Notes: a model not told the origin generated them from the letters alone. 64,000 nucleotides of DNA from a virus (IMGVR_UViG_3300030616_000025:1-64000); one strand, 5' to 3'. Shown: positions 742 to 42,477, numbered from the stretch's first letter. Made by a program: numbers and translations.

Positions 742-999
742 ATGGAAGAAATCATGAGTATAAAGGTGAAAAAATTTAATTTTTTGTTGCATGCATCGTA
801 TTCTGTGGAAACAGAAAGCAATGAATACTCACTCTGTGTAACACCCACAGAGGCTGTAATCAATATTGAGACTAATACTAAGGGCAAACAAATGCAGACT
901 GTTAGCATTCCGCGAAATGTATTAGAATGCTTTTTGGATGAGATAACCTTAAATGGTTTGCCAAAACTTATTGCGTTTTCACAGAAAGCAACAACATGA
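742..999 (+). CDS. hypothetical protein
   Basis: Same GAAAGGAAAAGTT-ATG initiation context as at 169. Its stop overlaps the next start. Confidence 0.5.
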   Translation: MEEIMSIKVKKFNFLLHASYSVETESNEYSLCVTPTEAVINIETNTKGKQMQTVSIPRNVLECFLDEITLNGLPKLIAFSQKATT

Positions 1000-6612: not shown

Positions 6613-6904
6613 ACTTCCCGGCGACAAGGTTTTAGTTCGGCGCAAAGAACCGAAAAAGCAGTCAGACGGCGGGATACATTTACCCCAGACGGCGTGGGAG
6701 AAATACGAAGAAGGAATTGTCGTTATGGCGGGAGAAGGCAGACAGATGAAAAACGGGGAAGTAGTACCGATAACGGTAAAAATGGGTGACAAGGTTATAA
6801 TGGACAAGCACCGGGGAGAAGAATTTCAGATGAACGGAAAGGAAGTAACGATTATCAGAGAAAGACATATTTTATGTATTACTAATGCGAGGGACGAAGA
6901 ATGA
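6596..6904 (+). CDS. groES: GroES/Cpn10-like co-chaperonin
   Basis: LPGDKVLVRR..EPKKQSDGGIHLPQTAWEKYEEGIVVMAGEG...NGEVVPITVKMGDKVIM...GEEF..NGKEVTIIRERHILCI matches the Cpn10 pattern along its whole length (~100 aa). Confidence 0.75.
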   Translation: MKKINRLPGDKVLVRRKEPKKQSDGGIHLPQTAWEKYEEGIVVMAGEGRQMKNGEVVPITVKMGDKVIMDKHRGEEFQMNGKEVTIIRERHILCITNARDEE

Positions 6905-7104
6905 AACAAACACCGGAAATAATATCACTACAGGAGTGCAGAAATCGCGTACAAGAAAATAAACCTATAGGAAAATTGAATATAGCCTGTCCGAGATGTC
7001 ACGGCGGGATGATGATTAAAGAAGAAGTGACACGAATAACCGGCGCAGACAGACCGGAGATACGGCTAAGGTGCGATAATTGCGGGATAAGGGAAACTGT
7101 TTGA
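6901..7104 (+). CDS. zinc-ribbon protein
   Basis: CPRCHG...CDNCG pattern. ATGA overlap with the upstream gene. Confidence 0.5.
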   Translation: MKQTPEIISLQECRNRVQENKPIGKLNIACPRCHGGMMIKEEVTRITGADRPEIRLRCDNCGIRETV

Positions 7105-8906: not shown

Positions 8907-9493
8907 AAGGAACAGTAATCCTTAACTACGGTTGTCCGAGAAGCGGGACTACTTTTATATGGTTTCTACTTCGGGCGGGAACGGGATACACATACGGTAA
9001 GATAGGCGAAAACGATCCTTGTCATCCTTGCAACAGTGGGACAGGTCTATTGCATATCAAGAAAACGTTTCGAGATTATAACGTTGTTTTTATTCGCACG
9101 GTGAGAAATCCCATACAGATATTCGAATCATTCAGACATGCGCACAAAACTAACGACGGCGAAATAGGAAAAAAAGCAGACATAGAAATCAAGCGATACA
9201 TACAAAACGAAGAGCGCAACACAAAAGAACAGGCGGGGAAAGTAAGAATATTAACAGTCAAATTTGACATGCTTTCAAACGATTCTTACGTGGAAAAAGT
9301 AATGACAACATTTAAGAAACACTTTCCGAACGCAGAGCATAATACAAATATTTTGCGGAAATATATACACAAGAATTTTAATCACTTCCCCGTCAGGCCC
9401 GGCAAGTTGCAAAGCGGGGTAAAAGACCGACAGTATCTTAGCGAGACAGAAAGACAGGAAATAATGCAGTGGTATAAGGAAAGCGTAAAATGA
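8903..9493 (+). CDS. sulfotransferase-family protein
   Basis: N-terminal PAPS-binding-type loop NYGCPRSGTTFIWFLL, plus VVFIRTVRNP (3'-phosphate-binding-like RxxRNP). Confidence 0.65.
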   Translation: MKGTVILNYGCPRSGTTFIWFLLRAGTGYTYGKIGENDPCHPCNSGTGLLHIKKTFRDYNVVFIRTVRNPIQIFESFRHAHKTNDGEIGKKADIEIKRYIQNEERNTKEQAGKVRILTVKFDMLSNDSYVEKVMTTFKKHFPNAEHNTNILRKYIHKNFNHFPVRPGKLQSGVKDRQYLSETERQEIMQWYKESVK

Positions 9494-10623
9494 ACATACT
9501 ATGTATCGTAATAGACTGCGGGCGGTTTGACTCTTGGGGCTGTAACGGGTTCAACAGGAATACTCCGAACATAGACAATCTTGCGGAGAAAAGCATACTG
9601 TACACGAACGCATATACTACAGCACCGTATACCCCGGCGGCGATAGCATCACTGTTCACAGGTAAATATCCATACGAGCACGGGATAAGGACAATGTATG
9701 GCAGTTGTCTTGATTCAGATGTTAAGACAGTACCGGAGATACTTCAGGGGCAGGGGTGGAATACGGCAGGGTTTGTCGGCTATGCAGGGCTATTGAGTTA
9801 CTACGGTCTGGACAGGGGCTTTAACTTTTTCGACGAAGATTCGGATTTAAGCAAAAACTGGGGAAAGACAAAAGCAGGGTGGAAAGGTAACGACTGGCGC
9901 AAGATGTATACAAGCTATTGCAAAAATCTAAAGAAAGATAACAATTTTATATTCGCACATTACTTTTTTGCTCACACAGGCGGGGAGAAAGCACTGCCGG
10001 AAGAATACAAAAAAGCAGACACATCAAGACACAAATATTTTCAGTACTACGACAAAAAAATAGAATGGTTTGATAAGGAATGGCTACCGCTGATACTTGA
10101 GCCGTGGGACTTGGATAATACAGCGGTGATAATGCTTGCGGATCACGGGGAATGTTTCGATGTCAAAAAAGAGCCGGGAGGACACCGAACAAATCTATTT
10201 CAGGATACAGTTCACATACCGCTGATGATACACGATATTGTAATCGAGGGTGGCGGTATAGACAGCAAATTGAAAAGCAATATAGATATATTCAGCAATA
10301 TTACCGAATGCAGTCATACAGCAGATACGATTTACTTCGAAACAACAAACGAAGACAAACCAGATCAACCGACATTCCGGGCGGGACTGACGGACGGAAA
10401 GAAAAAAGTAACCGCCGAGGGAGAAAATATAGGAGAGATTATAAACATAGAAGGGTGCTACGAAGTCGACGAGGAAAAGGAAAAAGAAATAGACTTAGAC
10501 CAGGATTGCGGAAAGCTGTTTCAAGAACTCATGGCAAACGAGGAAATGAAGCGAGAAATGAACGTCAAATGGGACGCGCAGGAAGCGCATATCGAAACCT
10601 TAAAGCAGTTGGGGTATATGTAA
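9490..10623 (+). CDS. sulfatase / alkaline-phosphatase-superfamily protein (possibly a phosphotransferase)
   Basis: ILCIVIDCGRFD metal site, YTTAPYTPAAIASLFTGKYPYEHG, MLADHGE. The C/S-x-P-x-R formylglycine motif is absent. Confidence 0.75.
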   Translation: MNILCIVIDCGRFDSWGCNGFNRNTPNIDNLAEKSILYTNAYTTAPYTPAAIASLFTGKYPYEHGIRTMYGSCLDSDVKTVPEILQGQGWNTAGFVGYAGLLSYYGLDRGFNFFDEDSDLSKNWGKTKAGWKGNDWRKMYTSYCKNLKKDNNFIFAHYFFAHTGGEKALPEEYKKADTSRHKYFQYYDKKIEWFDKEWLPLILEPWDLDNTAVIMLADHGECFDVKKEPGGHRTNLFQDTVHIPLMIHDIVIEGGGIDSKLKSNIDIFSNITECSHTADTIYFETTNEDKPDQPTFRAGLTDGKKKVTAEGENIGEIINIEGCYEVDEEKEKEIDLDQDCGKLFQELMANEEMKREMNVKWDAQEAHIETLKQLGYM

Positions 10624-11705
10624 TGCAAGTAAAATTTATAGACCTTGAAAAACTACACGAACCGATAATGCCGGAAATAGCACAGGCGATAGATAGCGTT
10701 GTCAGCGATAACGCTTTTATCGGCGGGAAATATGTAGAAGAATTTGAACAGGCATTCGGGAAATACCACGAAAGTAAATGTATAAGCTGTAACAGCGGGA
10801 CAGACGCGTTGATACTGGCATTGAAGGCGTTGGGAATAGACGAAGACAGCCGTGTTATTGTGCCAGATAATACATTTATAGCGACGGCAAACGCGGTAAG
10901 TGCATTAGGCGGTGTTCCTATATTCGCGGAAACAAACGACGAATATCTGATAACCGCGGAAGGAATAAAAGAAGCATATTATTCAGAGGTAGATGCAATC
11001 ATAGTAGTACACCTGTACGGAAATCCCTGTGACATGGATAGCATAATAGATGTTGCGAATGAATACAATCTGCCGATAATAGAGGACTGCGCGCAGGCTC
11101 ACGGTGCGACATACAAAGGAAAGAAAGTAGGAACATTCGGGGCGTGTGGATGTTTCAGTTTCTATCCGACAAAAAATCTTGGCGCAATGGGAGACGGCGG
11201 GGCTGTAATCACGGGAAACGCACAGCATGAAAGATTTATGAGAATCCTCAAAAATAACGGGCGCATGGATAAATATGAATATCTGGCAGAAGGAATCAAC
11301 AGCAGACTTGACGGTATACAAGCGGCTGTACTGACGGAGAAGTTAAAGCACCTTGACGAATTGAATTATCTGCGCAGGAAAAATGCGGGAATATACTACG
11401 ATGAACTAAAAGATATTGATGAGATAAAAATAATCACGCAGTACCGAGAAGAAAAAATGTGCGTGTATCATCAGTACGTCATAGAAGCAGGATCAAGAAA
11501 TGATTTGCAGTCATATTTGGCTTTATTCGGAATAGAGACAGGAATATACTATCCGTGTGCATTGACCGGAACAAAACCGTATTACAAGCAGGAATTAAAC
11601 GAAGCAGAAAATTTTAACATACTTAGCTTACCTATGCATCCGATGTTGACGGAAGAAGAAATAATATACGTCTGTGATAAGATAAAGGAATTTTACGATG
11701 TGTGA
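10623..11705 (+). CDS. DegT/DnrJ/EryC1/StrS-family PLP-dependent sugar aminotransferase
   Basis: FIGGKYVEEFEQAF, CNSGTDALILALKALGI, IIEDCAQAHGA, FSFYPTKNLGAMGDGG (lysine motif). The start is the ATG overlapping the upstream TAA, not the track's 10152. Confidence 0.9.
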   Translation: MQVKFIDLEKLHEPIMPEIAQAIDSVVSDNAFIGGKYVEEFEQAFGKYHESKCISCNSGTDALILALKALGIDEDSRVIVPDNTFIATANAVSALGGVPIFAETNDEYLITAEGIKEAYYSEVDAIIVVHLYGNPCDMDSIIDVANEYNLPIIEDCAQAHGATYKGKKVGTFGACGCFSFYPTKNLGAMGDGGAVITGNAQHERFMRILKNNGRMDKYEYLAEGINSRLDGIQAAVLTEKLKHLDELNYLRRKNAGIYYDELKDIDEIKIITQYREEKMCVYHQYVIEAGSRNDLQSYLALFGIETGIYYPCALTGTKPYYKQELNEAENFNILSLPMHPMLTEEEIIYVCDKIKEFYDV

Positions 11706-29812: not shown

Positions 29813-31465
29813 ATGAGCCTACTTAACAAGATAGGTTTAGCATCACACAAGAAACTCAAACAGGCGCAGGAAGCGCTACAATCCCGTGACAACCAGATAG
29901 CTGAATTCAGCAATAAGCTTGAATCCCGAGAAAAGCAAGTCGAAGAGTTTACCGAAAGGTTTAAACTGCTTGAAGAAACGTCCGGCATATACAAGCGCAG
30001 GCTTGCGCATATTCAGAAGGAAGTCAGCGAAACAAAGAAGCTGACAGAAGCCGGGTATATGTTCTCCGGGGAAGACGGGGAAGAGAACTATATCGAAGTC
30101 GGCACATCCAAATATGACCTGAATCATCAGGACTATTCAGAACTGCAAAAGCAATGGGTAGAGATATTCAAAATCAATCCCTATGCTAAGCGCATACTGG
30201 AAATGCAGACGGATTTTATAATCGGGGATGGGATAACGTACAGAATAGACGACGAGCAGGAGAAAACACTTGGGCCGATAATGGACAAGTTCTGGAATGA
30301 CTACGACAATGACATAGGCCGCAATCTGGACACAATGGTAACAGAGCTTATGCTGTTTGGTGAACAGGTATATCCCATAATCAAAACGAAGGACAAGTCA
30401 ACAATTAAGATCGGGAACATAGACCCGAGGACAATAATTAAAATACGCAAAGACCCGAACAACACTAAGAGGCTATGGCAGGTCATAGTAGACGGCGGGC
30501 AAGAAAACAAAGACAGGGCTTACGGCGTATTGAATGAAACACCCGAAGGCAAAATGGGTATAGACAAAGACCAGAATAAACCGCACCCGGACGACAGTCA
30601 AAGCAAGGAGATAGAATACATAGGGGAAGTTGTCGTATTTCAGATAAACAAGCTGTTCAGTCAGGCACGGGGATACAGCGAACTAACCACTATGCTTGAC
30701 ACATTAGACCTTCTGGATCAGTTTGTATTCCAGGTTGCGGAGAGAAGTCTATTGCTGTTTCACTATCTCATGCACGTTACCTGTAAGGGAATGGGCGACG
30801 AGGAAATAAAGAAATACCGTCAGAAAGTCAGCAAGACATCGAGTGTGCTTGTGACAAACGAAATGGTTGAAATAGAGCTTATGTCCCCGGAGTTACAGAG
30901 CGTAGACGCACAGAACATCGTAACGACCATAGTCAGATACGCAATGGCAGGGGCAGGGATACCGGAGCATTTCATTGTTGCAGGAGATAACACGAATTAC
31001 GCAACAGCTAAAGAGCAGGGAACGCCGATAGAAAAGCGACTTGAAAGACGGCAGGACTTAATACGACAGATGCTTATACGCCTGACACGTATACAGTTGG
31101 AATATGCTTTCCCGAGTGCCGGGACAGACGAAATACAGGACTACATGGACGCTATTACGTTTCAGTTCCCGTCTATTAAGGGTGTGGACAAAAAGCAATC
31201 AGCAGACGTGCTAAGGAGTCTTGCAACTGCGCTACTGATAGCGGTGAATGCAAACATGATAACCAGAGAGAGCGCGGCAAAGGCATACATAGACGAAGCA
31301 GAGCGGCAGGGGATAGAGCTTGAAGAAGGGGATTACGAAGCATTCGATGACATTGAAAACAACATGTACAATGATCCGAAAGTAAAGGCGATATTAGGCA
31401 AAATGGGTAAGGACATGGATAACGACAAAAAGCAGATTCCCGGCAAGAAAAAAGGTGTTGCTTAA
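29813..31465 (+). CDS. portal protein
   Basis: 550 aa, immediately upstream of a MuF/SPP1-gp7-like gene and the capsid gene. Assigned by size, position and general composition. Confidence 0.65.
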   Translation: MSLLNKIGLASHKKLKQAQEALQSRDNQIAEFSNKLESREKQVEEFTERFKLLEETSGIYKRRLAHIQKEVSETKKLTEAGYMFSGEDGEENYIEVGTSKYDLNHQDYSELQKQWVEIFKINPYAKRILEMQTDFIIGDGITYRIDDEQEKTLGPIMDKFWNDYDNDIGRNLDTMVTELMLFGEQVYPIIKTKDKSTIKIGNIDPRTIIKIRKDPNNTKRLWQVIVDGGQENKDRAYGVLNETPEGKMGIDKDQNKPHPDDSQSKEIEYIGEVVVFQINKLFSQARGYSELTTMLDTLDLLDQFVFQVAERSLLLFHYLMHVTCKGMGDEEIKKYRQKVSKTSSVLVTNEMVEIELMSPELQSVDAQNIVTTIVRYAMAGAGIPEHFIVAGDNTNYATAKEQGTPIEKRLERRQDLIRQMLIRLTRIQLEYAFPSAGTDEIQDYMDAITFQFPSIKGVDKKQSADVLRSLATALLIAVNANMITRESAAKAYIDEAERQGIELEEGDYEAFDDIENNMYNDPKVKAILGKMGKDMDNDKKQIPGKKKGVA

Positions 31466-31638: not shown

Positions 31639-32544
31639 ATGGCGGGTAGACACAGCAAAAGACAGATAGCTTACGCCGCTGAAATACAAGACCTACTCGG
31701 GGACTATAAGACTGTAATGCTTGGCTATTCGGACAAGATAAAAAGCATACTTGAAGACTCACGGTTAAGACTTATAGGTAGACTGAACACTATGCCAGAA
31801 GGGGTATGGCAAAGCTACCACTTTGAACGTATACGAAAAGAACTTCAGGGTGTTTTGGGGCGCTTTGACAGAGAATATCTCATGCTTACCGGAAAAGCAC
31901 TGGACTATAGCGGTAAATCGGGATTAGAATTTGTCATATCCCCATTAAAGAACCATTTGGCTCTTGCGCATACCCCTGCAATATTTCAGCCCGCTTTTGT
32001 AGACCCGTACATACGACAGACATTCAATCTGGTTAACACCATGATTAAGGGCGCGGAGGGGTTAGTAGAACAGGAGATAATGAGTCATATATACGTAAAC
32101 ATGTCCGGTGCAGAGGGTGTACCGACAACGATACAGAAGATTATAAACACAATATCCGGCAAGCTTGGCGGGGAGACAGCAGGGTTTAAAAACCTGAATA
32201 AAAGGTCATGGGCTATATTCAGGACGGAGACAATCAAACTGCACAATCTATCTGCACAAATACAGATGAGGCGGGCAGGAGAGATATTCCCGGAGAGCAG
32301 GAAGACATGGCATCACAGCGGTATGCACGGACTGGGGCAGACGCCGAGACCTGGACACGTAGCACTTGACATGTCGACAGTAGACTTTAACGAGCGATTT
32401 GTGAATCCGGTAACAGGTATGAGCCTGGAATATCCGCATGACCCCACGGCTGACGCAGGGGAGATTGTAAATTGCGGTTGTTTCCATTCGTTGAAAATGC
32501 CGGATGAAGTAATGTTAAGCGATAGAACAATGGTATTGACTTGA
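31639..32544 (+). CDS. head morphogenesis protein (Mu gpF / SPP1 gp7 family)
   Basis: C-terminal TWHHSG...RPGHVALDMSTVDFNERF...EIVNCGCF matches the family's R..H..ldG...F...CRC-type block. Confidence 0.75.
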   Translation: MAGRHSKRQIAYAAEIQDLLGDYKTVMLGYSDKIKSILEDSRLRLIGRLNTMPEGVWQSYHFERIRKELQGVLGRFDREYLMLTGKALDYSGKSGLEFVISPLKNHLALAHTPAIFQPAFVDPYIRQTFNLVNTMIKGAEGLVEQEIMSHIYVNMSGAEGVPTTIQKIINTISGKLGGETAGFKNLNKRSWAIFRTETIKLHNLSAQIQMRRAGEIFPESRKTWHHSGMHGLGQTPRPGHVALDMSTVDFNERFVNPVTGMSLEYPHDPTADAGEIVNCGCFHSLKMPDEVMLSDRTMVLT

Positions 32545-32555
32545 AAGGAAAAGGT

Positions 32556-33338
32556 ATGAAAAACATTAGTAAGACGGATTTGGTAGCGTGTATGCAGAAG
32601 GGCATGAATCAGAAGGAAATGGCAGAGACACTTAATTGCAGTATACCGACACTGCACAAGTACCTTGACAAGCATGAATTGAGGGACGGCTTGCCGAAGG
32701 AACTTAAAACAAATGCATGGACACTGAATGAATCGAAGTATGCATTTTGCGTCAAACTGCGGGCTGATTATAACGTGCAGAACATCACATTAAAAGAACT
32801 GCTTGAACTGTCACAGGAAGACTTGGTAGGTATATACGAGGAATACCAGAAGAAGCAGTCAATGCCGCAACCGCCTACACAGCCTGTGCCTCTTGCGCAG
32901 ACAGTACAGCAGACCACACCGCCGCCTACTAAAAGTGTGTCTGATATTCCGCGGGAGATATTTTACCCAGACCCGGAAAAAGAAAAACAGCGGGGAATAG
33001 AGGAAGCCAGACAACAGGAGATTTGGCGCAAGGAATGGGCTGAATACAAAGACAAGAAAAGTATCAGAGTGGCAAAGAACAGGGCGAATCAGAAGCTGTT
33101 CTATGTAAAGCCGGTCAATCCCTACACAATGCGCAATCACGACATAGAGAAGATACGCAAGCATAGTGACGGCAGTATAACAATTAAAGCTCTATGCGGC
33201 CCGAAATGGCATTGGACAAAACAGGAACTGAACGGCAAGGGCAAAAAGGTAAAAGAGCTTAACGTAGCATACGGCAATGCAAACAAGGAAAAGGAATTCG
33301 ACGAAGGATTTTTAGGCTATAAGGAAATGGTTATATGA
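32556..33338 (+). CDS. HTH-domain protein with a basic C-terminal region
   Basis: GMNQKEMAETLNCSIPTLHKYL. GAAAGGAAAAGGT-ATG context. Confidence 0.5.
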   Translation: MKNISKTDLVACMQKGMNQKEMAETLNCSIPTLHKYLDKHELRDGLPKELKTNAWTLNESKYAFCVKLRADYNVQNITLKELLELSQEDLVGIYEEYQKKQSMPQPPTQPVPLAQTVQQTTPPPTKSVSDIPREIFYPDPEKEKQRGIEEARQQEIWRKEWAEYKDKKSIRVAKNRANQKLFYVKPVNPYTMRNHDIEKIRKHSDGSITIKALCGPKWHWTKQELNGKGKKVKELNVAYGNANKEKEFDEGFLGYKEMVI

Positions 33339-35971
33339 CGGACAAATTGCAAGAGTATATAAAGAAAGTTGGTAGCGAATACTGTATCTTTTCCCACAAG
33401 ACAGACAAGAAGCTATCCTGCTATGACACGGAAGCGGAAGCAGAAAAAGCCTTAAAACGGATGGCTCAATACAGAGAAGAGCGTGGACAGGGGCAGGGGA
33501 AAGGAAACTCCAAACAGCAGGACGGGGGAACTGGAACGTGTGTATGTCCTAAATGCGGCGCAGAAGCAACGCATGACAGGGGTACACCGTGCCTTGAAAT
33601 GAAGTGTCCTAAATGCGGTACTGCAATGGTAGGCAAAAGCAAAGAACAGCAGGAAGCGGAAAACGCTATCAACATACAGGTAGACACAATACAGATACGG
33701 GAAAGTAAAAACCCGTGGACATGGAAAGTGTGTGTAATCCAGGAGGGGTTAAGCAAGAACAGGACTGAATACACGCTTGAAGCCCTGCACAACATGAAGG
33801 ACTTAGTAAACGAAGCGAACAAAGGTTCACAGCCTGTGCCTGTAATGTGTTATGACTATGAGACAAGTATAGATATGTTAAACCACCTTTCGAATGCGGA
33901 ACGCGATCTTTTCCCGGAGGGATTTCCGAAAAAGACAATCGGTTGGTTACGTAACGCAAGTATCGTAGAAGAGGGTGGAATAAACAGACTGCTTGCAGAC
34001 CTTGAAATCAGTAAAAGTGCGGAATGGTTTAAGGACTTGATCGTTTCTGCAAAGGAAGCTGACCCGCCTATACAAAATCCATTCGGATTAAGTATAGATG
34101 GGGAAGGCACTTCTATTGAGGGAATGCACGAAGCAGACGGGGAGCTGAAGTGGACAATTACCAGTGTTCGAAAGCTTTTCGAGGTTACCGTAGTAACGTA
34201 TCCCAGTGCGGGAGGCGAGATTATAGATGTTAAGGAAGACAGACAAAGGTTTGTCACATTGATTGAAAGTTTATTTAAGGGTAAAGAAATGAAAAAGCTG
34301 ATTGAAAAGCTGAAAGAACTTTTTGAGAATATCAAAGAGGGTGAAACGCTTGAAGACGCAATCAAGGCACTTGAAGTAGCTAAGGGCGAAGACAAGCGTT
34401 TTGACTTTGAGCTGACAGAGGAAAATGCGGACGAAGTTCTTGAAAAGGTTAAAGAACTTGCTTACAACATTAAGATTGAACGCGGTTTGAGGGACAGGGC
34501 AAGTGCCGAGGAAGTAGCACAGATGGGTAAAATGCTTGAAGAGATCAAGGCACAGATAGCCGAACTCACACCGTCGAAAAAAAGCGAGCCGGAGGAAAAG
34601 CCGGAGGAAAAGAAAGAAGGTGCAGACATGGAAGACGCACAGAAAATTCTTGAAGAGCTGAAACAGGCAAAGGCTGAACTTGCAGTTTCCAAAACTCTTG
34701 ACGACAGCAAGCTGTCTGACAAGGGCAAGGACGTTATTCGCAATCGCTATAAGGGTGTAAGCGAAGTTGACGAAAAAGAACTGCGGGAAGCGATTCTTGA
34801 GCTTGAAGATGCTCTCGGAACGGTCGAGGGGAAAGACCAGAGCGTCGCACTGACAGAGACTGAAAAAGAGAAACAGGTTGAACACTATCAGGAACAGATG
34901 GACACAATCTACGGCGTTCCTGATGCAGAGGGCAGGGTAAAGCCTTTCAGTTCTGCTAAATTCCGCGGACTGTGTGACCTGTATGAACAGTGGACTGGGG
35001 ATAAGGGCGTAACAGGAAATATAAGACTTGAAAATCCTTACGGGCGTTCAAGAATTTCCGAAGCTATCCAGGTTAGTGACTTTTCTACCATGCTTGGAAC
35101 GTCAATGACTAAACACATGGTATTTGAGTATGACCGGATAGAAGACCAGTGGAGAAAGCTCTGTAATGTGAAACCCATCCGGGATTTCAAACAGCAGGAC
35201 TTTATTCAGTTCGGTGCATACGCGGCACTGGCAACAGTGAATGAACTCGGGTGCTATGCTGAATTCAGTACGCCTACCGAAGAGACAGGGAATTACTCAC
35301 CTACAAAACGTGGTAATTTCATCTCAATTTCCCGTGAATCGATCCTCAATGATGATCTTGGGAAATTCCGCAGGACTACACAGCAGATCGGGCGGGCGGC
35401 TAAAGTAACACTGAACCAGTTTGTATTCGACCTTGCATTGAACTATTCAAGTTCAATCAACGGCGGGACGATATATGACAGCAAGGCGCTGTATCATGCA
35501 TCGCATTCAAACTATGCAACCGCCTCACTTACCAAAGCGAACCTTGAAACTGCATGGGTGGCAATGAGAGCACAGACAGACCTTGACAGCGTTGCGGCGC
35601 TTGATATTCTGCCTAAGTATCTTATTGTATCTCCCACACAGAGAAGCACGGCTGTACCGATTGTCGAAAGTCAGTATCTGCCGGGCGGGTCGAACAATGA
35701 TGTCAACACGGCTTACAAGCTGTGCGAAGTCATGATTTCGAATTATCTCCGCAGTGATACCAATAACTGGTATCTGGTAGCAGACCCCGCGGTACATGAC
35801 ACTATTGAACTGGGTTTTGTACAGGGTAGAGAAGCACCGGCTGTATTCGTGCAGAATGACGGAGCGGTTGGAATGGTATTCAGTCACGACAAGATTTCCT
35901 ACAAAATCCGCCATGAATACGGCGGGGCAGTGACTTCTTACCAGAGCTTTTACGGTTCTGTTGTAACGTAG
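33335..35971 (+). CDS. fusion of zinc-ribbon, prohead-protease-like region, acidic coiled-coil scaffold and major capsid protein
   Basis: CPKCG...CPKCG at the N-terminus. FGLSIDGEG resembles the HK97-family protease G-x-S-x-G block. A Glu/Lys-rich segment of roughly 200 aa follows, then a C-terminal domain of roughly 330 aa in capsid position, followed by a strong terminator. Confidence 0.65.
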   Translation: MTDKLQEYIKKVGSEYCIFSHKTDKKLSCYDTEAEAEKALKRMAQYREERGQGQGKGNSKQQDGGTGTCVCPKCGAEATHDRGTPCLEMKCPKCGTAMVGKSKEQQEAENAINIQVDTIQIRESKNPWTWKVCVIQEGLSKNRTEYTLEALHNMKDLVNEANKGSQPVPVMCYDYETSIDMLNHLSNAERDLFPEGFPKKTIGWLRNASIVEEGGINRLLADLEISKSAEWFKDLIVSAKEADPPIQNPFGLSIDGEGTSIEGMHEADGELKWTITSVRKLFEVTVVTYPSAGGEIIDVKEDRQRFVTLIESLFKGKEMKKLIEKLKELFENIKEGETLEDAIKALEVAKGEDKRFDFELTEENADEVLEKVKELAYNIKIERGLRDRASAEEVAQMGKMLEEIKAQIAELTPSKKSEPEEKPEEKKEGADMEDAQKILEELKQAKAELAVSKTLDDSKLSDKGKDVIRNRYKGVSEVDEKELREAILELEDALGTVEGKDQSVALTETEKEKQVEHYQEQMDTIYGVPDAEGRVKPFSSAKFRGLCDLYEQWTGDKGVTGNIRLENPYGRSRISEAIQVSDFSTMLGTSMTKHMVFEYDRIEDQWRKLCNVKPIRDFKQQDFIQFGAYAALATVNELGCYAEFSTPTEETGNYSPTKRGNFISISRESILNDDLGKFRRTTQQIGRAAKVTLNQFVFDLALNYSSSINGGTIYDSKALYHASHSNYATASLTKANLETAWVAMRAQTDLDSVAALDILPKYLIVSPTQRSTAVPIVESQYLPGGSNNDVNTAYKLCEVMISNYLRSDTNNWYLVADPAVHDTIELGFVQGREAPAVFVQNDGAVGMVFSHDKISYKIRHEYGGAVTSYQSFYGSVVT

Positions 35972-36020
35972 ACGGAATTGTGGTGATTCCTTTCCGTTCA
36001 AACGTTTTTTGTCACCACGC

Positions 36021-36058
36021 AGGGGAGGGGGTTCATACCGCCCCCTCTCCGTATTTTC
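36021..36058 (+). terminator. rho-independent terminator after the capsid gene
   Basis: GGGGAGGGGG-TTCATACC-GCCCCCTCTCC hairpin followed by GTATTTTC. Confidence 0.6.
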
Positions 36059-36075
36059 ATATAGGAGACTAAGGC

Positions 36076-37335
36076 ATGGCTACAACAATGGTGCAATGGC
36101 CTTGTGACGGAGTAAAGCTTTTGGGGGCTACTGGTGCAAGCGCACAAGGAGCAGGACAGTGGTTTGCCATGCCGTCAGGGGCGAAAGTAATAGAGATTTT
36201 CACATTACCCGAAACATCGGACGCGTTAAAGCTTGTCTGGACAGTACAGCTTGCGATGCACAGTTCGGTTTCAGGTGCAAAGAGTAAGAATAACCCGGAA
36301 ACAGTAATTTCAAAAACAGGAGCGGATGGTGCGGAAAGTATGAAATTCTCCACGCTGTGTACGCTCATAAGAGTAAACGTAACTACGTATAACGCTGACG
36401 CCTTGCATTCACAGGTGCTTATGGCGGCAGACTACGGGACTATCGTAACACTTGACGATGCGGAAATAACGGTTGGCGATGTAACAATAGGCAGTAACAT
36501 TACCGAGACAAATTCAACGGCGATTAAAGCGGCTGTAGAAAAAATGGATGACTGGGATGAAGCGGACAGGGCAAAAGTCAATCCAATAGTCGGACAAGCA
36601 GGGATAGATGCTGACGCAGGAGCGGCAAGCGCAAAAACGCCGAGAGTTATAACGGCTTCAGACGATCCAGGCAATGTACATCTCGGAACAATAGCCGCTA
36701 CAAACTCACTTATGGAAGGGCATTTGGGTAACATAGCAACAGACACAGCTTCTATCAGTACAGACGCTTCTACGATAGCAGGAGCGATAGGCACAGAGGA
36801 CGGGACATTACCTTCTGGGATAGCGCTGATTGGCGGAGAAGTCGTAGACGGAGTACCGACCGAAGTAACCGACGGAAATCTTGCGGCGTTGTGGATAAAC
36901 ACGTTCAAGCAGTTAGTTCCGGCAGGATTTGACTTAACGCAGAACGCGCTAAGCATTACAGAAGTAGCGCCACCGCTATTGATGCTTGACAAAGAGACAG
37001 GCATAACACAGCTTACAGAGCCTGGGGTTACTACACCTGTCGATGCGTCACTGTACGGGATTGCAGGGTACAGCGTAACGATTGCGAATATCGATAGTAA
37101 TGTCATACTTGGCTTAGTCGGCACAACGGACGAATCAGGCTCTTACGAATGCAGACTTGTCAACACGGCGGTAGCGAACTGCGCAATATCAGGTAACAGG
37201 GCTACAATCACAGCTAACGGAACATATCTGATATACACGGAAGACCCGGCTGTTAAGTTACAGCTTGATTGGATTTCTGAATTAGGCGGCGCAAATGCCA
37301 CGGCAGATGCAGACAGATTTTTCAGGAGAAAGTAA
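36076..37335 (+). CDS. Ala/Thr/Gly/Asp-rich virion protein (decoration or head fibre candidate)
   Basis: First gene after the capsid terminator. GGAGACTAAGGC-ATG start. No family recognised. Confidence 0.45.
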   Translation: MATTMVQWPCDGVKLLGATGASAQGAGQWFAMPSGAKVIEIFTLPETSDALKLVWTVQLAMHSSVSGAKSKNNPETVISKTGADGAESMKFSTLCTLIRVNVTTYNADALHSQVLMAADYGTIVTLDDAEITVGDVTIGSNITETNSTAIKAAVEKMDDWDEADRAKVNPIVGQAGIDADAGAASAKTPRVITASDDPGNVHLGTIAATNSLMEGHLGNIATDTASISTDASTIAGAIGTEDGTLPSGIALIGGEVVDGVPTEVTDGNLAALWINTFKQLVPAGFDLTQNALSITEVAPPLLMLDKETGITQLTEPGVTTPVDASLYGIAGYSVTIANIDSNVILGLVGTTDESGSYECRLVNTAVANCAISGNRATITANGTYLIYTEDPAVKLQLDWISELGGANATADADRFFRRK

Positions 37336-37337
37336 AA

Positions 37338-37769
37338 ATGGAAATATATCCAAAAGCAAAGGTTGAAACAGAAACGGTGGAATACACGCCGGAAGAAAAA
37401 CAGTCTGTAGCAAATGAATTTGTACGGCTTAAAGAAGAAGGGCCAGACCCCGGATACTTCCCTATCGGCGTAGACAGACAGCTGAAAGACAGAGAAGCGG
37501 CGGCAATAGCGAACATAAACGTAATCGGCGACAGGAAATACTATCCTTGCGCTATAAAGCTTATCGCTGAGATCGAGCAGGAAGCCAAAGACATGAAAGC
37601 TGTCAGACCGGCAGACTGCAAGGATGAAGCTGAATACAAATCGGAGCTTGCGAAGAAAAAGACATACCTGGATGAAACGACATACTTTGACGCGGTACTT
37701 GCGCATAACGGAGTGGAAGACTTTGCTGAACTAAAGACAGCACTCACGCCGAAAGAAATAGCCAAATGA
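37338..37769 (+). CDS. hypothetical structural-module protein
   Basis: Start 2 nt after the upstream stop. Confidence 0.45.
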   Translation: MEIYPKAKVETETVEYTPEEKQSVANEFVRLKEEGPDPGYFPIGVDRQLKDREAAAIANINVIGDRKYYPCAIKLIAEIEQEAKDMKAVRPADCKDEAEYKSELAKKKTYLDETTYFDAVLAHNGVEDFAELKTALTPKEIAK

Positions 37770-37948
37770 AAAAGCTATTGATAATAGTCCCTTTGATTGT
37801 GCTTTGCAACTGTAGGATAGGTTGGTATATCCACAAGACAGAAACGTCGGTCAATGCGGCTACAAACGAAGTGTGGGTACGTGAGACAGAGGAAATACGG
37901 ATAAAGATAAAGAAAGCCACCATACAGCAATTGAGGAATGAACGGTGA
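37766..37948 (+). CDS. small protein with an N-terminal signal/anchor-like segment
   Basis: MKKLLIIVPLIVLCNC. The Cys context is not a canonical lipobox. Confidence 0.35.
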   Translation: MKKLLIIVPLIVLCNCRIGWYIHKTETSVNAATNEVWVRETEEIRIKIKKATIQQLRNER

Positions 37949-38652
37949 TAATGCGGAGATTTAAGCAAGACCCTGACTGCGTATTTGCAGAGCGGTTTAT
38001 TTCTCCGCAGGATTGCAGAGACAGAGGGTTTACTATAAGCGGGAATCCGGGCGTGGAAAATTCTCCATATGGACATGCTCTGACACTTGCAGGAGGCACG
38101 CCGGATTATCTTGCGTTGGATGATGCTACATATATTGGAGATTTAATAGGAACGGGCGATTTTAGTATTGTAGCCGCAATTAAGAACAGTGCCACGTTAG
38201 CAGGAACCGCAAACAAGTACACCATTATAGCGGATAAAGATCAGCCAAATACAACGAAAATAGGATTTGCATTTATACTTGCCGGGGGATCGCTTAACGG
38301 TTTGCAGATACGGTTGAATGACGCCACGAATGCAAACGACATGACCTTGAGTTTGTCAACAGACAGGACGACTCTGTTGTCTAATGGCAACTGGCATACG
38401 GTAGGTGTATCGGTTGACCGGGGGACTATAGCAGACAGCAGGCTGTATGTAAATTCCTTTTCCGGGGAATACTCAGCAGCCGGTGACGCTATAGGTGCGA
38501 ACACGCTCAGCAACGATCAGGACTTGACACTTGGAACACTGGGGAACAAAATCACATATCCGGCTACGCTGAGCGTGGCGTACGTGCTGATATATAAGAG
38601 GATTTTATCTGCCGCAGAGTTTGGCAATTTCCACACAGGGGAGGCGTTCTGA
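37945..38652 (+). CDS. LamG / concanavalin-A-like lectin-fold protein, paralog 1
   Basis: FSIVAAIKNS...NWHTVGVSVDRG...RLYVNS...LTLG. Confidence 0.55.
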   Translation: MIMRRFKQDPDCVFAERFISPQDCRDRGFTISGNPGVENSPYGHALTLAGGTPDYLALDDATYIGDLIGTGDFSIVAAIKNSATLAGTANKYTIIADKDQPNTTKIGFAFILAGGSLNGLQIRLNDATNANDMTLSLSTDRTTLLSNGNWHTVGVSVDRGTIADSRLYVNSFSGEYSAAGDAIGANTLSNDQDLTLGTLGNKITYPATLSVAYVLIYKRILSAAEFGNFHTGEAF

Positions 38653-39344
38653 TGTACCTCAATAATCTTGTCGGCTTCTGGGATATGAGCACGATAAATC
38701 CCGTGAACCTTGCGCCGAGGACGTACGGGACAGGTAATGGCACAGGGACAGGAATTGCGGCGGCTAATATAGTAAACGGCGTGGGCGGAGGCAAGGGGAC
38801 GCTGTATAACGGGACAGATGAACTGACTACCATATCAAATAATTCAAATTTGGTTTTTGGCAATGGAACATCAGACAATCCATTCAGCATAGCAACTTGG
38901 GTTAAAGCAACTGATTGGAGCAACTTTACCATAGTCGGCAAGGGGATTCACGGAACAGATGGAGAATACAGGCTAAAAACATCCGCCACAGATAAAATAC
39001 AATTTTATCTTTCCGATGAAAGCGAAACAGATTATATCGCGAGGTACTACAATGCTGGATTAACCTCCCATGAAGGACAGTGGGTTTTTATTACTGCTAC
39101 TTATGACGGCAGCTCTGCGGTTACCGGATTAAAAATATACTTAAACGAATCAAGGATTGATGATACAAGCTTGGCGGGTGGCTCTTACGTTGCTATGACA
39201 GATGAATCTGCTGACCTAATTATAGGTGAGTATGACGGAGATTATGCATCGGGTGTTATGGATTATTTTATGATATTTAACTTCGAACTCGCTCAAACGC
39301 AGGTAATCGACCTAATGAACCGCACCAGAACAGGGAGACTATAA
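38652..39344 (+). CDS. LamG / concanavalin-A-like lectin-fold protein, paralog 2
   Basis: FSIATWVKAT...QWVFITATYDGSSAVTGLKIYLNESRIDD...LIIG. This is the best match to the Laminin_G_3 pattern. Confidence 0.65.
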   Translation: MYLNNLVGFWDMSTINPVNLAPRTYGTGNGTGTGIAAANIVNGVGGGKGTLYNGTDELTTISNNSNLVFGNGTSDNPFSIATWVKATDWSNFTIVGKGIHGTDGEYRLKTSATDKIQFYLSDESETDYIARYYNAGLTSHEGQWVFITATYDGSSAVTGLKIYLNESRIDDTSLAGGSYVAMTDESADLIIGEYDGDYASGVMDYFMIFNFELAQTQVIDLMNRTRTGRL

Positions 39345-40004
39345 ATGCCTTCATGGAGATTGAAAGAGCACTGTGTTTATTGCAACCACCTTAGAGATGC
39401 GTCTATAGATGAGGTTACGAAGACGGCGAATGCTTGGACGGGGACGGAGGCATATATTGAGAATCCTTACGGGTTTAGCGTGGGGGATTTTAACGGGGCA
39501 AGTCATTTAGATATAACTGCTCTTCTTGCAAGATTTTCTTCTTTGACGGAAGTAACAATTTCTGTTCTGTTTAAAATTGATAGCCTTGGAGCAGACAGAG
39601 TAATATTTGCGGCTTCAGATAGTGGTGATGCTTCAAGTGAGATTAAATTTAATGTAAGCAGTTTAAACAAAGTTATATTTAGTGCAAGAGAAAATGGGTC
39701 TGGTATTTTTAGCGCAACCTCTACCACAACTGTAATAGCTAATCATTGGTATCATGCGGTTGGTACAGTAAACTCTACAGCTTCTTATATATATCTTGAT
39801 GGTAAATATGATGCTGTTGGTACTGGTGCTGCTGGGTTTTCTGTGGTAAACGATTTAGATCATGTGGCTATAGGTGCAAATAAAGACAGTGGTGGTTTGC
39901 AATGGTACTGGAACGGTGGGATAGGAACTATAAAGATTCATAATTTTGTGGCGACTTACGACGAAGCAATTGTATTAAACCGCATGGCAAAGAGGGGGCT
40001 ATAA
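39345..40004 (+). CDS. LamG / concanavalin-A-like lectin-fold protein, paralog 3
   Basis: VTISVLFKID...HWYHAVGTVNSTASYIYLDGK...VAIGAN. Confidence 0.55.
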   Translation: MPSWRLKEHCVYCNHLRDASIDEVTKTANAWTGTEAYIENPYGFSVGDFNGASHLDITALLARFSSLTEVTISVLFKIDSLGADRVIFAASDSGDASSEIKFNVSSLNKVIFSARENGSGIFSATSTTTVIANHWYHAVGTVNSTASYIYLDGKYDAVGTGAAGFSVVNDLDHVAIGANKDSGGLQWYWNGGIGTIKIHNFVATYDEAIVLNRMAKRGL

Positions 40005-40624
40005 TGATTTACCCCGAACAGCCGATCCTTTCAAGAGCGCTTCCCGATATTGCGGACAGCACGCTCGTCGGCTCCTGGCTCACGCACAAAACTCCGAGCA
40101 GTGGGAAGGATTATTCGACGGTAGGCAATGACGGAGTAAGCACAGGCATTAAGTGGAATAAGATCGGCGGTTATTTTGACGGAGCAAGTTATCTGAATAT
40201 GACAGGCGGTACATTTACTGGGATTGACACGGTTGAGTTTTGGTTTAAAACGAGTGGCGCAGGGTCTATGTGTATAATAAATGATTTTAGAACGAATAGG
40301 AGTGTTTACATAAACGGTGGTAAGATAAACTTTAGAAACTCTGATAATTCTGCAAATTTAGCAACAGCGAATACATTTAATGATAACGCTTGGCATTACG
40401 GACTCGTTAATATAGAGAATGATTTAATATATCTTGATGGAGAAGTGGAGGCGACAGAAGCAGGTGATGGTCTTGCCAGTGACAGGATTCTAATTGGAGC
40501 AAGGCATAGTGGCGGTTATGGTAGTTATTTCATTGGTGATCTTGCCTGTTTAAACGCATATGCAACACCCAAATCAGCTTCTTTCGCAAAATACCGATAC
40601 TTACAGTGTGTACCAGAAGGATAA
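40004..40624 (+). CDS. LamG / concanavalin-A-like lectin-fold protein, paralog 4
   Basis: DTVEFWFKTS...AWHYGLVNIENDLIYLDGE...ILIGAR. Confidence 0.55.
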   Translation: MIYPEQPILSRALPDIADSTLVGSWLTHKTPSSGKDYSTVGNDGVSTGIKWNKIGGYFDGASYLNMTGGTFTGIDTVEFWFKTSGAGSMCIINDFRTNRSVYINGGKINFRNSDNSANLATANTFNDNAWHYGLVNIENDLIYLDGEVEATEAGDGLASDRILIGARHSGGYGSYFIGDLACLNAYATPKSASFAKYRYLQCVPEG

Positions 40625-40627
40625 AGA

Positions 40628-41263
40628 ATGAGCTTAGTATTCCAAACAATAGACGGCACAAAAGACCTAAGCCGGTATAAACACGCGATAACCAATTCAT
40701 CCGGCCCAGCTGCAATACTTGGCAGGCGTGTTGATATTCCCGCGGCAAATGAGAATGCTTATATTCGGATTGGTTCAGCTGGGGATACAAAGTTTACTGG
40801 CTCAGATGGATTTACGGTAGCAGAATGGATTAGGCTTGGGCGGGTAGATGTACAACAGTATCTTTTAAATCTATGGGGAACAGACGCGTCTTGGGGAACA
40901 TCTATATCAGCTTCAAATAGAGCAATTTTTTTAACATATGATGGTGTTGGTTCTTCAACTCTTACGGGAGCTACAACTTTATTTATTGCTAATCGTTGGT
41001 ATAGGTTAATTTTTGTTTATGATGGTGGTACGACCGGAACAAATGGACATATTTATATAAATGGAGAAATTGAAATTGAGGGAACGATTAACAGAGTCCC
41101 TCATTATGTTGCCGGGCAGGGAGTGGGATTTGGAACTGAATGGACAAGAAATATTGCAACAGATTTAGTAGGCTCCGGCTCAGACCTGAGATTTTACAAC
41201 ACCGCATGGAGCGCAGGACAGGCTAAACTCGACTACGAAATGACAAGACTGCGGAGACACTAA
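40628..41263 (+). CDS. LamG / concanavalin-A-like lectin-fold protein, paralog 5
   Basis: FTVAEWIRLG...RWYRLIFVYDGGTTGTNGHIYINGE. Confidence 0.55.
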   Translation: MSLVFQTIDGTKDLSRYKHAITNSSGPAAILGRRVDIPAANENAYIRIGSAGDTKFTGSDGFTVAEWIRLGRVDVQQYLLNLWGTDASWGTSISASNRAIFLTYDGVGSSTLTGATTLFIANRWYRLIFVYDGGTTGTNGHIYINGEIEIEGTINRVPHYVAGQGVGFGTEWTRNIATDLVGSGSDLRFYNTAWSAGQAKLDYEMTRLRRH

Positions 41264-41953
41264 ATGAACCTTACAGACGCAAGAACATATTGCGGATACC
41301 TACTGCAAACACAAGACATTTCTCTTGACAGCGAAACGGCAGTATTGAATTACTGTATAGGTGATGCGGTAGACCAGTATTCACAGGATAAGCCGCTTGT
41401 ATATTGCGAAGCTGTAGCCGGGAGCGGGTCGAAAAGATATAGCCTTGACGGACTTACGAATTTTGACTTTGAATTCAGTGTGATTATAGAGATAGAATAT
41501 CCGATAGACAAGAACCCGCCTGAATTGATAGACGACAGATACTGGACATACATTCAAAGACCGTCGGGGGATAATGACGATTTATTGTTTATTGACACTA
41601 CTCCTGCAAGCGGGGAAAGTTTTCATATCTATTACACGTACTACACAAACGATATAAACGACGTAAGAGCAAAAGACCAGAGGGCGGTTGTATCGCTTGC
41701 GGCTTCGTATGCCTGTCAGGTCATGGCAAACAAGGCGAATCAGTCCGGGGATGATAATGTCAACGCTGACTTTGTGGACAGAACATCAAACAAAAATAAC
41801 TTTGTTGAATCAGCTAAGTATTTCGAGGAAAAGTATAAAAAGCGTATTTTCGGAGATAAAGACAGCATAAGTCCGGCGTTGAATATTACGAACCTTGACA
41901 CATACGTACACAGACAGCATAAGAGAATACTGCACAAGAGGACATACACCTAA
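41264..41953 (+). CDS. head-tail connector/adaptor candidate
   Basis: Position between the head and tail genes. Positional inference only. Confidence 0.4.
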   Translation: MNLTDARTYCGYLLQTQDISLDSETAVLNYCIGDAVDQYSQDKPLVYCEAVAGSGSKRYSLDGLTNFDFEFSVIIEIEYPIDKNPPELIDDRYWTYIQRPSGDNDDLLFIDTTPASGESFHIYYTYYTNDINDVRAKDQRAVVSLAASYACQVMANKANQSGDDNVNADFVDRTSNKNNFVESAKYFEEKYKKRIFGDKDSISPALNITNLDTYVHRQHKRILHKRTYT

Positions 41954-42477
41954 TGGAAATATCGATAGATTTCAGCGACGTAGAAAAACAGGTTGCGGAT
42001 ATTACCCGAAAAGCGCCGTGGGTTATAGATGAGATTATCATACACTGGCTGTTGGCAGGGGCGAAAGAAATACTTCACAGGTCGGTCATTGGCGCAAGTG
42101 GAATAAGAGGCGTTACCGGGAAATATCACGGTGCATTTACGAACACTGATATTATGGGCGGGGTAGGAGACAGGCATATCATAGTTGTCAACGTAGCGGA
42201 TTACAGCATGGTTATAGAGCACGGAGCAAAGTTCACAAACAAAATGCCGCCGCCCGGAGTACTTGACGAATGGGTAAGGAAAATAATTGCACCCGGAAGC
42301 ATAGAAGAGGTCAAGCGGATAGCCTATTTGATAGGCAGATCATACGTGCGCAAGGGTAGAGCCGGGAAGAAAGCCATTAAGGGCAGATACGTAATGACAA
42401 ACGCATACAAAAAGGCAAAAGCGCGACTTGACACATGGCTGAAACAATTGGTAGATCAAGGATTGAAAAAGCTATGA
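41953..42477 (+). CDS. head-tail joining protein candidate (HK97 gp10-like position)
   Basis: Position and size only. Confidence 0.35.
   Translation: MEISIDFSDVEKQVADITRKAPWVIDEIIIHWLLAGAKEILHRSVIGASGIRGVTGKYHGAFTNTDIMGGVGDRHIIVVNVADYSMVIEHGAKFTNKMPPPGVLDEWVRKIIAPGSIEEVKRIAYLIGRSYVRKGRAGKKAIKGRYVMTNAYKKAKARLDTWLKQLVDQGLKKL

Follow-up and report, generated by a model that had tools for sequence, protein, structure and literature searches.

A portable cassette of five position-specific LamG-type genes and two partner genes in uncultured phages, a candidate multi-subunit virion appendage

The virus sequence IMGVR_UViG_3300030616_000025:1-64000 (64,000 nucleotides, the whole of which is referred to as the window) carries, within its block of late morphogenesis genes, a run of five genes for laminin G (LamG)-type proteins, here called G1 to G5 in their order. 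The question raised by this locus is what five related single-domain proteins do side by side among the genes for head and tail, and whether they act as independent units or as parts of one structure. An earlier note, made from the sequence, had described five consecutive genes of 206-235 aa at 37945-41263 as a battery of diverged lectins; open reading frames (ORFs) of exactly those sizes are present at exactly those coordinates (Table 1; positions are those of the window unless a contig is named). The five genes are found here to be accompanied by two upstream partners, A and B, to keep their order in distant phages, to be fused with their neighbours in relatives, and to exchange their bodies behind conserved N-termini. 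The unit as a whole is tentatively read as a single virion appendage.

G1-G5 are LamG/concanavalin A (ConA)-type jelly-roll domains, one bare domain per protein, and the fold proposed for all five in the earlier note is thereby confirmed. The gathering threshold of Pfam Laminin_G_3 (PF13385) is 27.6 bits and is exceeded by G2 (56.7 bits), G3 (64.9 bits) and G5 (45.2 bits); the profile check that the note had named succeeded for these three and failed for G1 and G4. G1 is below the threshold and passes only the cut-off (23.8) of a clan relative, Toxin_R_bind_N, at 25.3 bits, and G4 has no Pfam match. Full-length orthologs of both in the related contig L009 have PF13385 on record. When the five ortholog groups were aligned profile to profile with hhalign, ten of ten pairs were significant (probability 91-98%, E-values 1e-6 to 2e-13), the G4 group reaching 97-98% probability against the G3 and G5 groups. 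P0005, a naturally occurring G2::G3 fusion, was modelled with AlphaFold, which gives the G3 half at a predicted local distance difference test (pLDDT) score of about 75-85 and the G2 half without a confident model, so that among G1-G5 the G3-type domain is the only one with a confident fold model. With Foldseek this model matches the tetanus and botulinum Hc-N jelly-rolls (E 5e-11) and, second best, domain 4 of AbnA, the carbohydrate-binding domain of a GH43 arabinanase (E 3e-10, template modelling (TM) score 0.75). A profile of the five paralogs, compared with PDB, matched an S-layer-domain LamG protein (4qvs) and pentraxin. The N-terminal stretch of the G proteins corresponds to the first-strand region of LamG_3 proteins, and no signal peptide or membrane segment is present in G1-G5. 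As to the four hallmark motifs claimed for every member, all are literal in G2 and (I/L)-Y-x-(D/N)-(G/E/S) occurs in all five, whereas the others are degenerate (e.g. WYHAV in G3, TVEFWFK in G4).

The paralogs are, as had been stated, highly diverged at nearly constant size. Mutual identity is about 20%, and pairwise BLAST is significant only for G3-G4 and G3-G5. The interval 36000-42000 contains no direct DNA repeat of at least 18 nt, save one 21-mer at chance level; the duplications are accordingly old, and a recent tandem duplication was rejected. The array was also considered as target of a diversity-generating retroelement and rejected as such, there being no template/variable repeat pair in the same interval; the scans of window ORFs, which covered part of them, showed no reverse transcriptase. 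The junctions between the genes are 1-nt overlaps, abutments or a 3-nt gap, and a purine-rich stretch resembling a Shine-Dalgarno sequence lies 5' of each gene. G2/G3 and G4/G5 are in the same frame with a stop between them (plus one codon for G4/G5). Because G5 and the gene that follows are also in frame, this spacing is uninformative, and programmed readthrough at the two pairs was discarded.

Relatives were found among metagenomic contigs by a profile search with the five paralogs; G3 alone, in an indexed search, matched only itself. The 8.4-kb contig L009, which comes from a sister sample, keeps the order of the array: G1 (28% identity, E 2e-13), G2 (39%, 1e-23), G3 (27%, 2e-10) and G4 (31%, 3e-14) each have an ortholog there, and the ORF that follows, truncated at the contig end, begins with MSLVFHLQG..DLSRFK, like G5 with MSLVFQTIDGTKDLSRYK. 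Values of E 3e-31 for G2 and of 30% identity and E 2e-14 for G4 were also obtained, and identities to the L009 set span 26-39%. Orthologs of G1 occur in L008 (46% identity, E 1e-64), L009, L014 and L020, those of G2 in L009, L014 and L020, those of G3 in L009, L014, L015, L017 and L020, and those of G5 in L014, L017, L018, L019 and, truncated, in L009. Across all contigs the best cross-genome match of each member is the member at the same position, with paralogs inside a genome at E-values of at least 6e-4; the sole exception is L014, in which four bodies have been replaced by one type. The members have the N-terminal signatures R-F-x-x-D-P-D-C-V-F-A-E (G1), M-Y-L-x-N-L-V-x-x-W-D-x-S-x-I-N-P (G2), M-P-S-W-R-L-K ... 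W-(T/A)-G-T-E-A-Y (G3), ...Q-P-x-x-x-x-L-P-D (G4, with the C-terminus ...V-P-E-G) and M-S-L-V-F-...-D-L-S-R-Y-K (G5). The five-position set is found in contigs of about 60% G+C content (L015, L017-L021) as well as in contigs of 37-47%, and the presence of the same five positions over the range 37-60% indicates that the split into five predates the divergence of these phages. On these comparisons G1-G5 are ancient, position-specific paralogs in an order fixed across distant phages. The copy number of LamG domains is not absolutely fixed: in L024-L026, a more distant lineage, three genes together encode four. Variation of copy number among relatives, which the earlier note had proposed as a test, is thus seen in more distant relatives only. 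Three further proteins (P0015, P0017 and P0009) were rejected as cassette members; they are cellular LamG_3 proteins unrelated to the cassette.

These results bear on an explanation that builds on the earlier note, by which the proteins are independent lectins displayed on capsid or neck, a fluid battery that rises and falls in copy number and of which each member binds the particle alone. Such a battery is in keeping with the confirmed fold and the strong divergence, with the four domains of the distant lineage and with the exchange of the G3 body between close relatives. It is hard to reconcile with one-to-one positional orthology and an order kept across distant phages, and neither recent duplicates nor DNA repeats were found; such fluidity is contradicted by the fixed positions. 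Independence of the members fares no better, as neighbours are repeatedly fused and the genes consistently travel with A and B, which the note had left out; the head-to-connector position is not conserved either. This explanation is held to be very unlikely.

In protein A a repeat of about 55 aa is present once, at residues ~140-200 (...KMDDWDEADRAKVNPIVGQAGI...PRVITASDDP), and the C-terminal part (~250-419) is a conserved beta-sandwich domain. HMMER, run exhaustively with A as query, returned 1,270 relatives at E<=1e-3, of which 349 are at E<=1e-10. Members of this family have 1-8 copies of the repeat (...DDWDESDRAKVN..GQAGI...PRVTLASDDP...) and a well-conserved C-terminal domain of about 170 aa, a part of them consisting of the C-terminal domain alone. 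Homologs of A are located 5' of the LamG genes in L008 (46% identity, E 2.5e-43), L009 (30%, E 4e-8), L024-26 and L028; in the high-G+C group a homolog of A was undetected and a homolog of B is present. Protein B always lies between A and the LamG genes and has homologs in L008, L009 (weak), L020, L024, L027 and L028; it had no match in Pfam, PHROGs, or PDB sequence or structure searches. Family-A members were also looked up without regard to LamG. Look-ups with enough flanking DNA were informative (L027 is too short), and in three of three (L024-26, L028 and the window) a B homolog and LamG genes are situated directly 3' of A. It follows from these A-led look-ups that the unit is a three-part cassette of A, B and four to five LamG domains. 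A 284-aa protein of L014 is a doubtful member, aligning with family A at only 17% identity. In a scan of IMG/VR with family A, a single distant member was found (in L029), a C-terminal domain alone and without LamG genes, and a scan of GTDB genomes gave no prophage. In L029 (2995-5670) a TerS-like gene and TerL are followed by this 150-aa family-A member and then by a 169-aa protein with a sub-threshold CBM_6/malectin-like match; this pair may be a minimal version of the type 'base plus sugar-binding protein'.

Fusions of adjacent members occur in several relatives and always follow gene order (Table 1). At the G4/G5 junction of the fused proteins the motif ...(V/I)-P-(E/D)-x, followed by S-L-(V/A)-(F/L), is kept; a G3::G4 fusion was not seen in the relatives examined. 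By 'Rosetta-stone' reasoning, fusion of neighbours argues that members adjacent in the array would also be physically adjacent in one assembly and present at equal stoichiometry.

Table 1. Features of the window and of related contigs. Positions in nucleotides; G1-G5, LamG genes in order; A and B, upstream partners.
Sequence	Feature	Position	Strand	Size and remarks
Window	GT1+GT2 fusion	996-3503		835 aa; upstream of terminase
Window	Large terminase	7080-8906		
Window	Glycan cluster	8903-~27400		sulfotransferase-like (sub-threshold), sulfatase, DegT aminotransferase, two Methyltransf_24, polysaccharide pyruvyl transferase, MurB-like reductase, glycosyltransferases including GT1
Window	Portal	29813-31465		upstream of array
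Window	Mu-F/gp7-like head morphogenesis gene	31639-32544		upstream of array; followed by a 265-aa gene
Window	Capsid gene	33335-35971		878-aa fusion, C-terminal Phage_capsid_4 domain; cassette after capsid gene
Window	Terminator-like hairpin	36022-36050	+	11-bp stem, 8 G-C pairs, T-rich tail; between capsid gene and cassette
Window	Protein A	36076-37335	+	419 aa; 'decoration candidate' of the earlier note
Window	Protein B	37338-37769	+	143 aa; small family, conserved N-terminal YPKA motif
Window	60-aa ORF	37766-37948	+	lipoprotein-signal-like N-terminus (MKKLLIIVPLIVLCNC); between B and G1, overlaps GTG start of G1 by 4 nt
Window	G1	37945-38652	+	235 aa from GTG; gene caller start ATG 37951, 233 aa
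Window	G2	38652-39344	+	230 aa
Window	G3	39345-40004	+	219 aa
Window	G4	40004-40624	+	206 aa
Window	G5	40628-41263	+	211 aa
L008	Cassette			after capsid gene; Linocin_M18/DUF6260-like capsid
L009	Cassette			directly after terminase-like gene; nearby capsid family none seen
L018	Cassette			before large terminase; HK97 Phage_capsid with S78 protease
L014	G2::G3 fusion			P0005, 397 aa
L014	G4::G5 fusion			341 aa
L017	G4::G5 fusion			424 aa
L015/L018	G4::G5 fusion			
L019	G4::G5 fusion			424 aa
	G4::G5 fusion			P0013
L024	G1::G2-type fusion			409 aa
L028	G1::G2-type fusion			453 aa

The N-terminal ~45 residues form the best-conserved window in the ortholog groups of G1-G4; for G3 the conservation score is 0.70 in this window versus 0.36-0.50 elsewhere. 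The closely related contigs L019 and L015 share 87% DNA identity over G4::G5 and 86% over codons 1 to ~40 of G3, whereas the remainder of G3 is without nucleotide similarity and has 37% protein identity. In L018 the two types are recombined, the breakpoint lying in G3: nt 1-1093 are 99.5% identical to L019 and nt 1104-2581 are 99.9% identical to L015. A complete G3 of the one allele type is directly followed in L018 by a recombination scar (1125-1535), where 136 aa survive of a second G3 allele; they share 99% identity with the C-terminal part of G3 in L015. In L014 the N-termini of G1, G2, G4 and G5 are kept and the bodies are replaced by one shorter type (G4 and G5 are 58% identical). Phage receptor-binding proteins are characteristically built from an N-terminal attachment segment that is conserved and a distal domain that is exchanged, and G3 of L019 versus L015 shows this plan, with the first ~40 codons kept and the rest replaced. 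The cassette differs from a trimeric fibre tip in that the exchangeable unit is a monomer-sized LamG domain of ~180 aa belonging to a five-member set, and from tail-tip receptor-binding genes in that it lies in the packaging/head block.

Replacement of whole bodies is also the evidence against a purely architectural role, in which the LamG domains would be capsid cement, spacers or assembly scaffolds, comparable to the Hc-N jelly-roll of the clostridial neurotoxins. That role would agree with the toxin Hc-N domains as closest solved folds, with the lack of identifiable sugar-binding residues, and with the conserved number, order and fusions, which suggest a fixed architecture. Near-identical phages that differ in the entire body of G3, and L014 with four bodies changed, are hard to explain by tightly fitted bricks and are what one would expect if the domains were exposed modules of specificity; the second-best fold match is the arabinanase carbohydrate-binding domain. 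An architectural role is regarded as a poor prospect.

The cassette is portable between phages with different capsid families. It follows the capsid gene in the window and in L008, stands directly after a terminase-like gene in L009 and precedes the large terminase in L018, next to capsid genes of different families (Table 1). It is linked neither to one capsid family nor to one map position, which is the linkage looked for in a capsid decoration protein. The varied map positions among relatives make the 'head-to-connector' placement a trait of the window genome and not of the system; the location given in the earlier note is correct for the window, where the array lies between the capsid gene with the decoration candidate and the neck genes, and does not extend to L009 and L018. 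The arrays of relatives are interrupted by selfish or accessory inserts, including small ORFs. A gene for a 229-aa HNH-like protein is inserted between LamG genes in L015 (297-986) and one for a 342-aa LAGLIDADG protein in L024 (12682-13710), the two carriers being unrelated. A 255-aa APS kinase plus cytidylyltransferase-like gene is located between the G2::G3 and G4::G5 genes of L014 (3317-4084); APS kinase/cytidylyltransferase is an activation enzyme for sulfate or nucleotide sugars.

Protein A is without a match in Pfam, PHROGs or PDB sequences. A model built from a 20-sequence alignment shows residues 300-419 as a small beta-sandwich at pLDDT ~90, and no confident structure model was obtained for the first 250 residues. 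The best PDB match of this C-terminal domain is YomS of prophage SPbeta (6i5o_A, E 4.4e-4, TM 0.57), followed by a 114-aa capsid turret chain of Haloferax tailed virus 1 (HFTV1; 8qpg_TD, E 1.6e-3, TM 0.44), both weak. Compared with predicted viral structures, it resembles small uncharacterised cyanophage proteins (TM 0.80) and collagen-repeat, C1q-domain, tail-fibre-like and side-tail-fibre-repeat proteins.

The reading to which we incline, tentatively and at a little less than an even chance, is that the cassette encodes one multi-subunit lectin-like virion appendage, with A as anchor bearing projecting repeats, B as adaptor or assembly factor, and G1-G5 docked upon it. The C-terminal jelly-roll of A would form an anchoring oligomeric base and its repeat region would project from the particle to a variable length, B being the adaptor or a factor needed in assembly. 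Each LamG protein would dock by its own position-specific N-terminal ~40 residues, and the exchangeable jelly-roll bodies would bind a surface glycan or another ligand of the host envelope or the environment. Several specificities on one particle would then serve a first, reversible attachment. We infer a location of the cassette proteins on the virion, more probably on the capsid than on neck or tail; the anchoring of one part by another, and the binding of ligands by the LamG bodies, are put forward in the same conditional sense. Display on the particle of sugar-binding modules with different specificities, as suggested in the earlier note, would fit both the body swapping and the weak likeness of A to a turret base.

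The nearest parallel is the capsid turret of HFTV1, which consists of a base protein (gp30) and a head protein (gp31) (PMC12494034). The base hexamer plugs into the capsid hexamers and holds the trimeric head protein, whose N-termini are inserted in the base (PMC12494034). The head protein has a carbohydrate-binding module (CBM), and the turret was proposed to make a reversible first contact with host glycans (PMC12494034). XepA of PBSX is described as the only structural homolog of the turret base protein (PMC12494034), and YomS resembles the C-terminal domain of XepA (PMC6834076). The best solved matches of the A domain are YomS and the turret chain (weak), and genes of sugar-binding or lectin-fold type are adjacent in both systems, the LamG genes lying 3' of A and B and having conserved N-terminal stubs. 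The two systems differ in that they have no sequence homology, in the 1-8 repeats of ~55 aa in A and in the extra protein B. In the place of one trimeric CBM-deacetylase there are five different single-domain LamG proteins without an enzyme domain; moreover, HFTV1 is an archaeal virus with turrets located on the capsid, and the cassette is known here from genes alone. The parallel is attractive, though the fold match on which it leans is weak.

A more specific form of this proposal is that G1-G5 would make up one hetero-oligomer of fixed composition, as a ring of five members or an arm of five domains, held by their N-termini on an oligomeric A base; it would represent a hitherto unseen class of tailed-bacteriophage capsid turret with five swappable heads. 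YomS and XepA, the nearest solved folds to that base, are pentamers. We consider this form unlikely. If true, the five-headed turret would be a built-in bet-hedging adhesin, of a logic comparable to that of the lectin sets of umbrella toxins. In those toxin particles of Streptomyces, UmbA lectins are carried on UmbC spokes (PMC11062931, PMC13274773). They share with the cassette the use of diversified lectin-type subunits from paralogous genes, by which one toxin particle covers several glycans together (bet hedging). They are unlike it in being a secreted bacterial complex with other families of lectin, adaptor and scaffold, and the analogy is one of logic only.

An accessory adhesin associated with tail or neck, such as a side fibre or collar in which A is a fibre with a distal knob and is decorated by the LamG proteins, is rather unlikely in our estimate. 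It would account for the collagen-repeat, C1q-domain, tail-fibre-like and side-tail-fibre-repeat proteins among the viral structure matches of A, for the fibre-like variation in its repeat number, and for the match of the LamG domains to large PHROG families, one of them annotated as virion structural protein. There is also a precedent in the lactococcal 936-group phages, whose CBMs are found on the neck passage structure (NPS), the tail-tube extension and the evolved Dit (PMC6669499), that is on neck and tail. In these phages, as would hold for the cassette, accessory beta-sandwich modules of sugar-binding type occur apart from the main receptor-binding protein; they are put together like 'bricks' and presumably help in detecting the host. 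They are domains of larger proteins of known location, in contrast to the free-standing single-domain proteins of the cassette with their fixed positions and partners, and G1-G5 have no PHROG or Pfam match to NPS, collar, Dit or tail-tube families. The cassette stands beside terminase, portal or capsid genes and never beside distal tail genes in the contigs examined, and the tail end of the window already encodes a Phage-tail_3-type host-specificity protein and a 565-aa fibre-connector-like protein. In A, finally, it is the C-terminal domain that is conserved, as would suit an anchor more than a distal knob, which would vary.

Several observations weigh against an appendage of the kind to which we incline. 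The matches of A to YomS and to the turret chain are weak (9-11% identity, the TM values above being on the target), generic viral jelly-rolls and CBMs follow them at no more than one order of magnitude in score, and 8qpg_TD would be the turret base protein judging by its chain length. Sugar-binding residues could not be identified in G1-G5, and PF13385 is without a conserved ligand-site signature. LamG folds are not always lectins, and for the closest solved folds, those of Hc-N in clostridial toxins, sugar binding is to our knowledge not known. The cassette occurs beside three capsid families at varied map positions, which is unusual for a protein that fits into a capsid lattice, and L029 has a family-A member with the C-terminal domain only and without LamG genes. 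Glycan-metabolism genes near or inside some of the arrays would also fit a non-structural role, and every carrier is an uncultured metagenomic contig.

Such a non-structural role would be that of an intracellular glycan-handling complex, which holds sugar substrates for phage glycosylation or sulfation enzymes, for example, or binds precursors of the host envelope. The window contains about 20 kb of sugar-modification genes between the large terminase and the portal, and the cassette of L009 occupies the same terminase-proximal slot. The APS kinase/cytidylyltransferase gene lies within the L014 array, a Cupin_2 gene follows the L024 array, a Maf/MptE-like gene (sub-threshold) is near the L008 cassette, and the LamG proteins have no export signals. 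The association with glycan genes is not conserved among carriers, however, none being visible around the cassettes of L018 and L009. Conserved stubs with swapped bodies and recombination between alleles are typical of surface-exposed host-range determinants, and the variable repeats and the turret-base-like domain of A are hard to fit to an enzyme helper. Overall, an intracellular complex seems quite unlikely.

To judge from the glycan cluster itself, the phage of the window may synthesise or alter a glycan of complex structure, perhaps a sulfated one. Glycosylation of virions by glycosyltransferases that the phage encodes has reportedly been discussed for mycobacteriophages. The link between the LamG genes and the glycan genes, as judged from their position, is suggestive, and the LamG proteins may dock on the phage's own glycan, as the earlier note proposed as one option; the co-occurrence with the 20-kb cluster makes a relation between phage glycan and phage lectin testable. 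In the cluster, the sulfatase ORF (9490-10623) and a 517-aa DegT ORF (10152-11705) overlap by ~470 nt as listed; as the DegT domain begins at residue 174, the true start of the aminotransferase is probably downstream. Among the head genes of L008 is a 216-aa gene (6343-6993) with an MptE/Maf-like match (DUF115-type) below threshold, which hints at glycosylation enzymes of virion or flagellin type in this group. In L010 (4984-10852), within a polysaccharide utilisation locus that includes GH30 and glycoamylase genes, a SusC/SusD pair is immediately followed by a distant LamG_3 match (283 aa), a cellular protein of this family that stands alone among genes for glycan binding. This SusD-adjacent protein and 4qvs are of the same fold and family as the phage proteins. 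Cellular PF13385 proteins are usually secreted or multidomain, unlike the phage domains, which are bare, lack export signals and form a fixed array.

Known virion sugar-binding modules are domains in larger structural proteins or single decoration proteins. The display of CBMs on phage particles is already known from the 936 phages and the HFTV1 turrets; what is added here, a conserved and portable LamG cassette of five positions whose members are fused and exchange their heads, stands firm as a description. No megablast match to the 13.6-kb region was found in 50,697 phage records, and tblastn with A, the G2::G3 fusion and the L024 member of family A had no match in the same records; P0061, a repeat-rich family-A member, gave marginal partial matches to hypothetical proteins of Rhizobium and Caulobacter phages. 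Literature searches yielded no description of such a LamG array. The remark in the earlier note that no described phage with this arrangement was known to its reader holds for these cultured-phage records, and as far as found the cassette appears confined to uncultured phages. Accessory sugar-binding modules on phages influence sticking to host envelope, mucus or biofilm matrix, and hence adsorption and host range. If the cassette encodes a virion appendage, it would represent a new plan, of wide occurrence among uncultured phages, by which adhesion with several specificities is built, would give a function to the unannotated family A (>1,200 proteins) and would be a natural scaffold for the exchange of binding heads.

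Nearly all genes of the window are on the + strand, and the genome is that of a phage. Downstream of G5 are, in order, a 229-aa gene, a 174-aa gene with a weak Neck1/tail-completion match, a 172-aa gene and a Phage_tube_2 tail tube, and farther downstream a tape measure protein and a GTA/phiJL001-like distal tail. The 229-aa gene had no match in Pfam, PHROGs or PDB sequence searches, and the label 'connector' for these downstream genes is a provisional one, taken from their position and the one weak match. The 60-aa ORF between B and G1 is a doubtful member of the cassette; no homolog is present in the relatives examined, which carry unrelated small ORFs at various points of the array. Within the array no promoter- or terminator-like sites are found above shuffle expectation, and Rfam gave no structured RNA match in the region. 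The N-terminus of the capsid fusion is a CxxC...CPKC zinc-ribbon segment followed by a long acidic coiled region, and a scan of IMG/VR with the fusion gave matches confined to the zinc-ribbon segment. Its C-terminal domain is Phage_capsid_4/Mu gpT-like and also matches the PHROGs 'major head and protease protein' and 'head maturation protease'. The strong hairpin behind the capsid gene was found by a consensus scan, in which the total of sites across the region is at shuffle expectation, and may reduce expression of the cassette relative to the capsid protein. Attenuation of genes 3' of the major capsid gene by a terminator is a common arrangement, and the hairpin of the window fits it.

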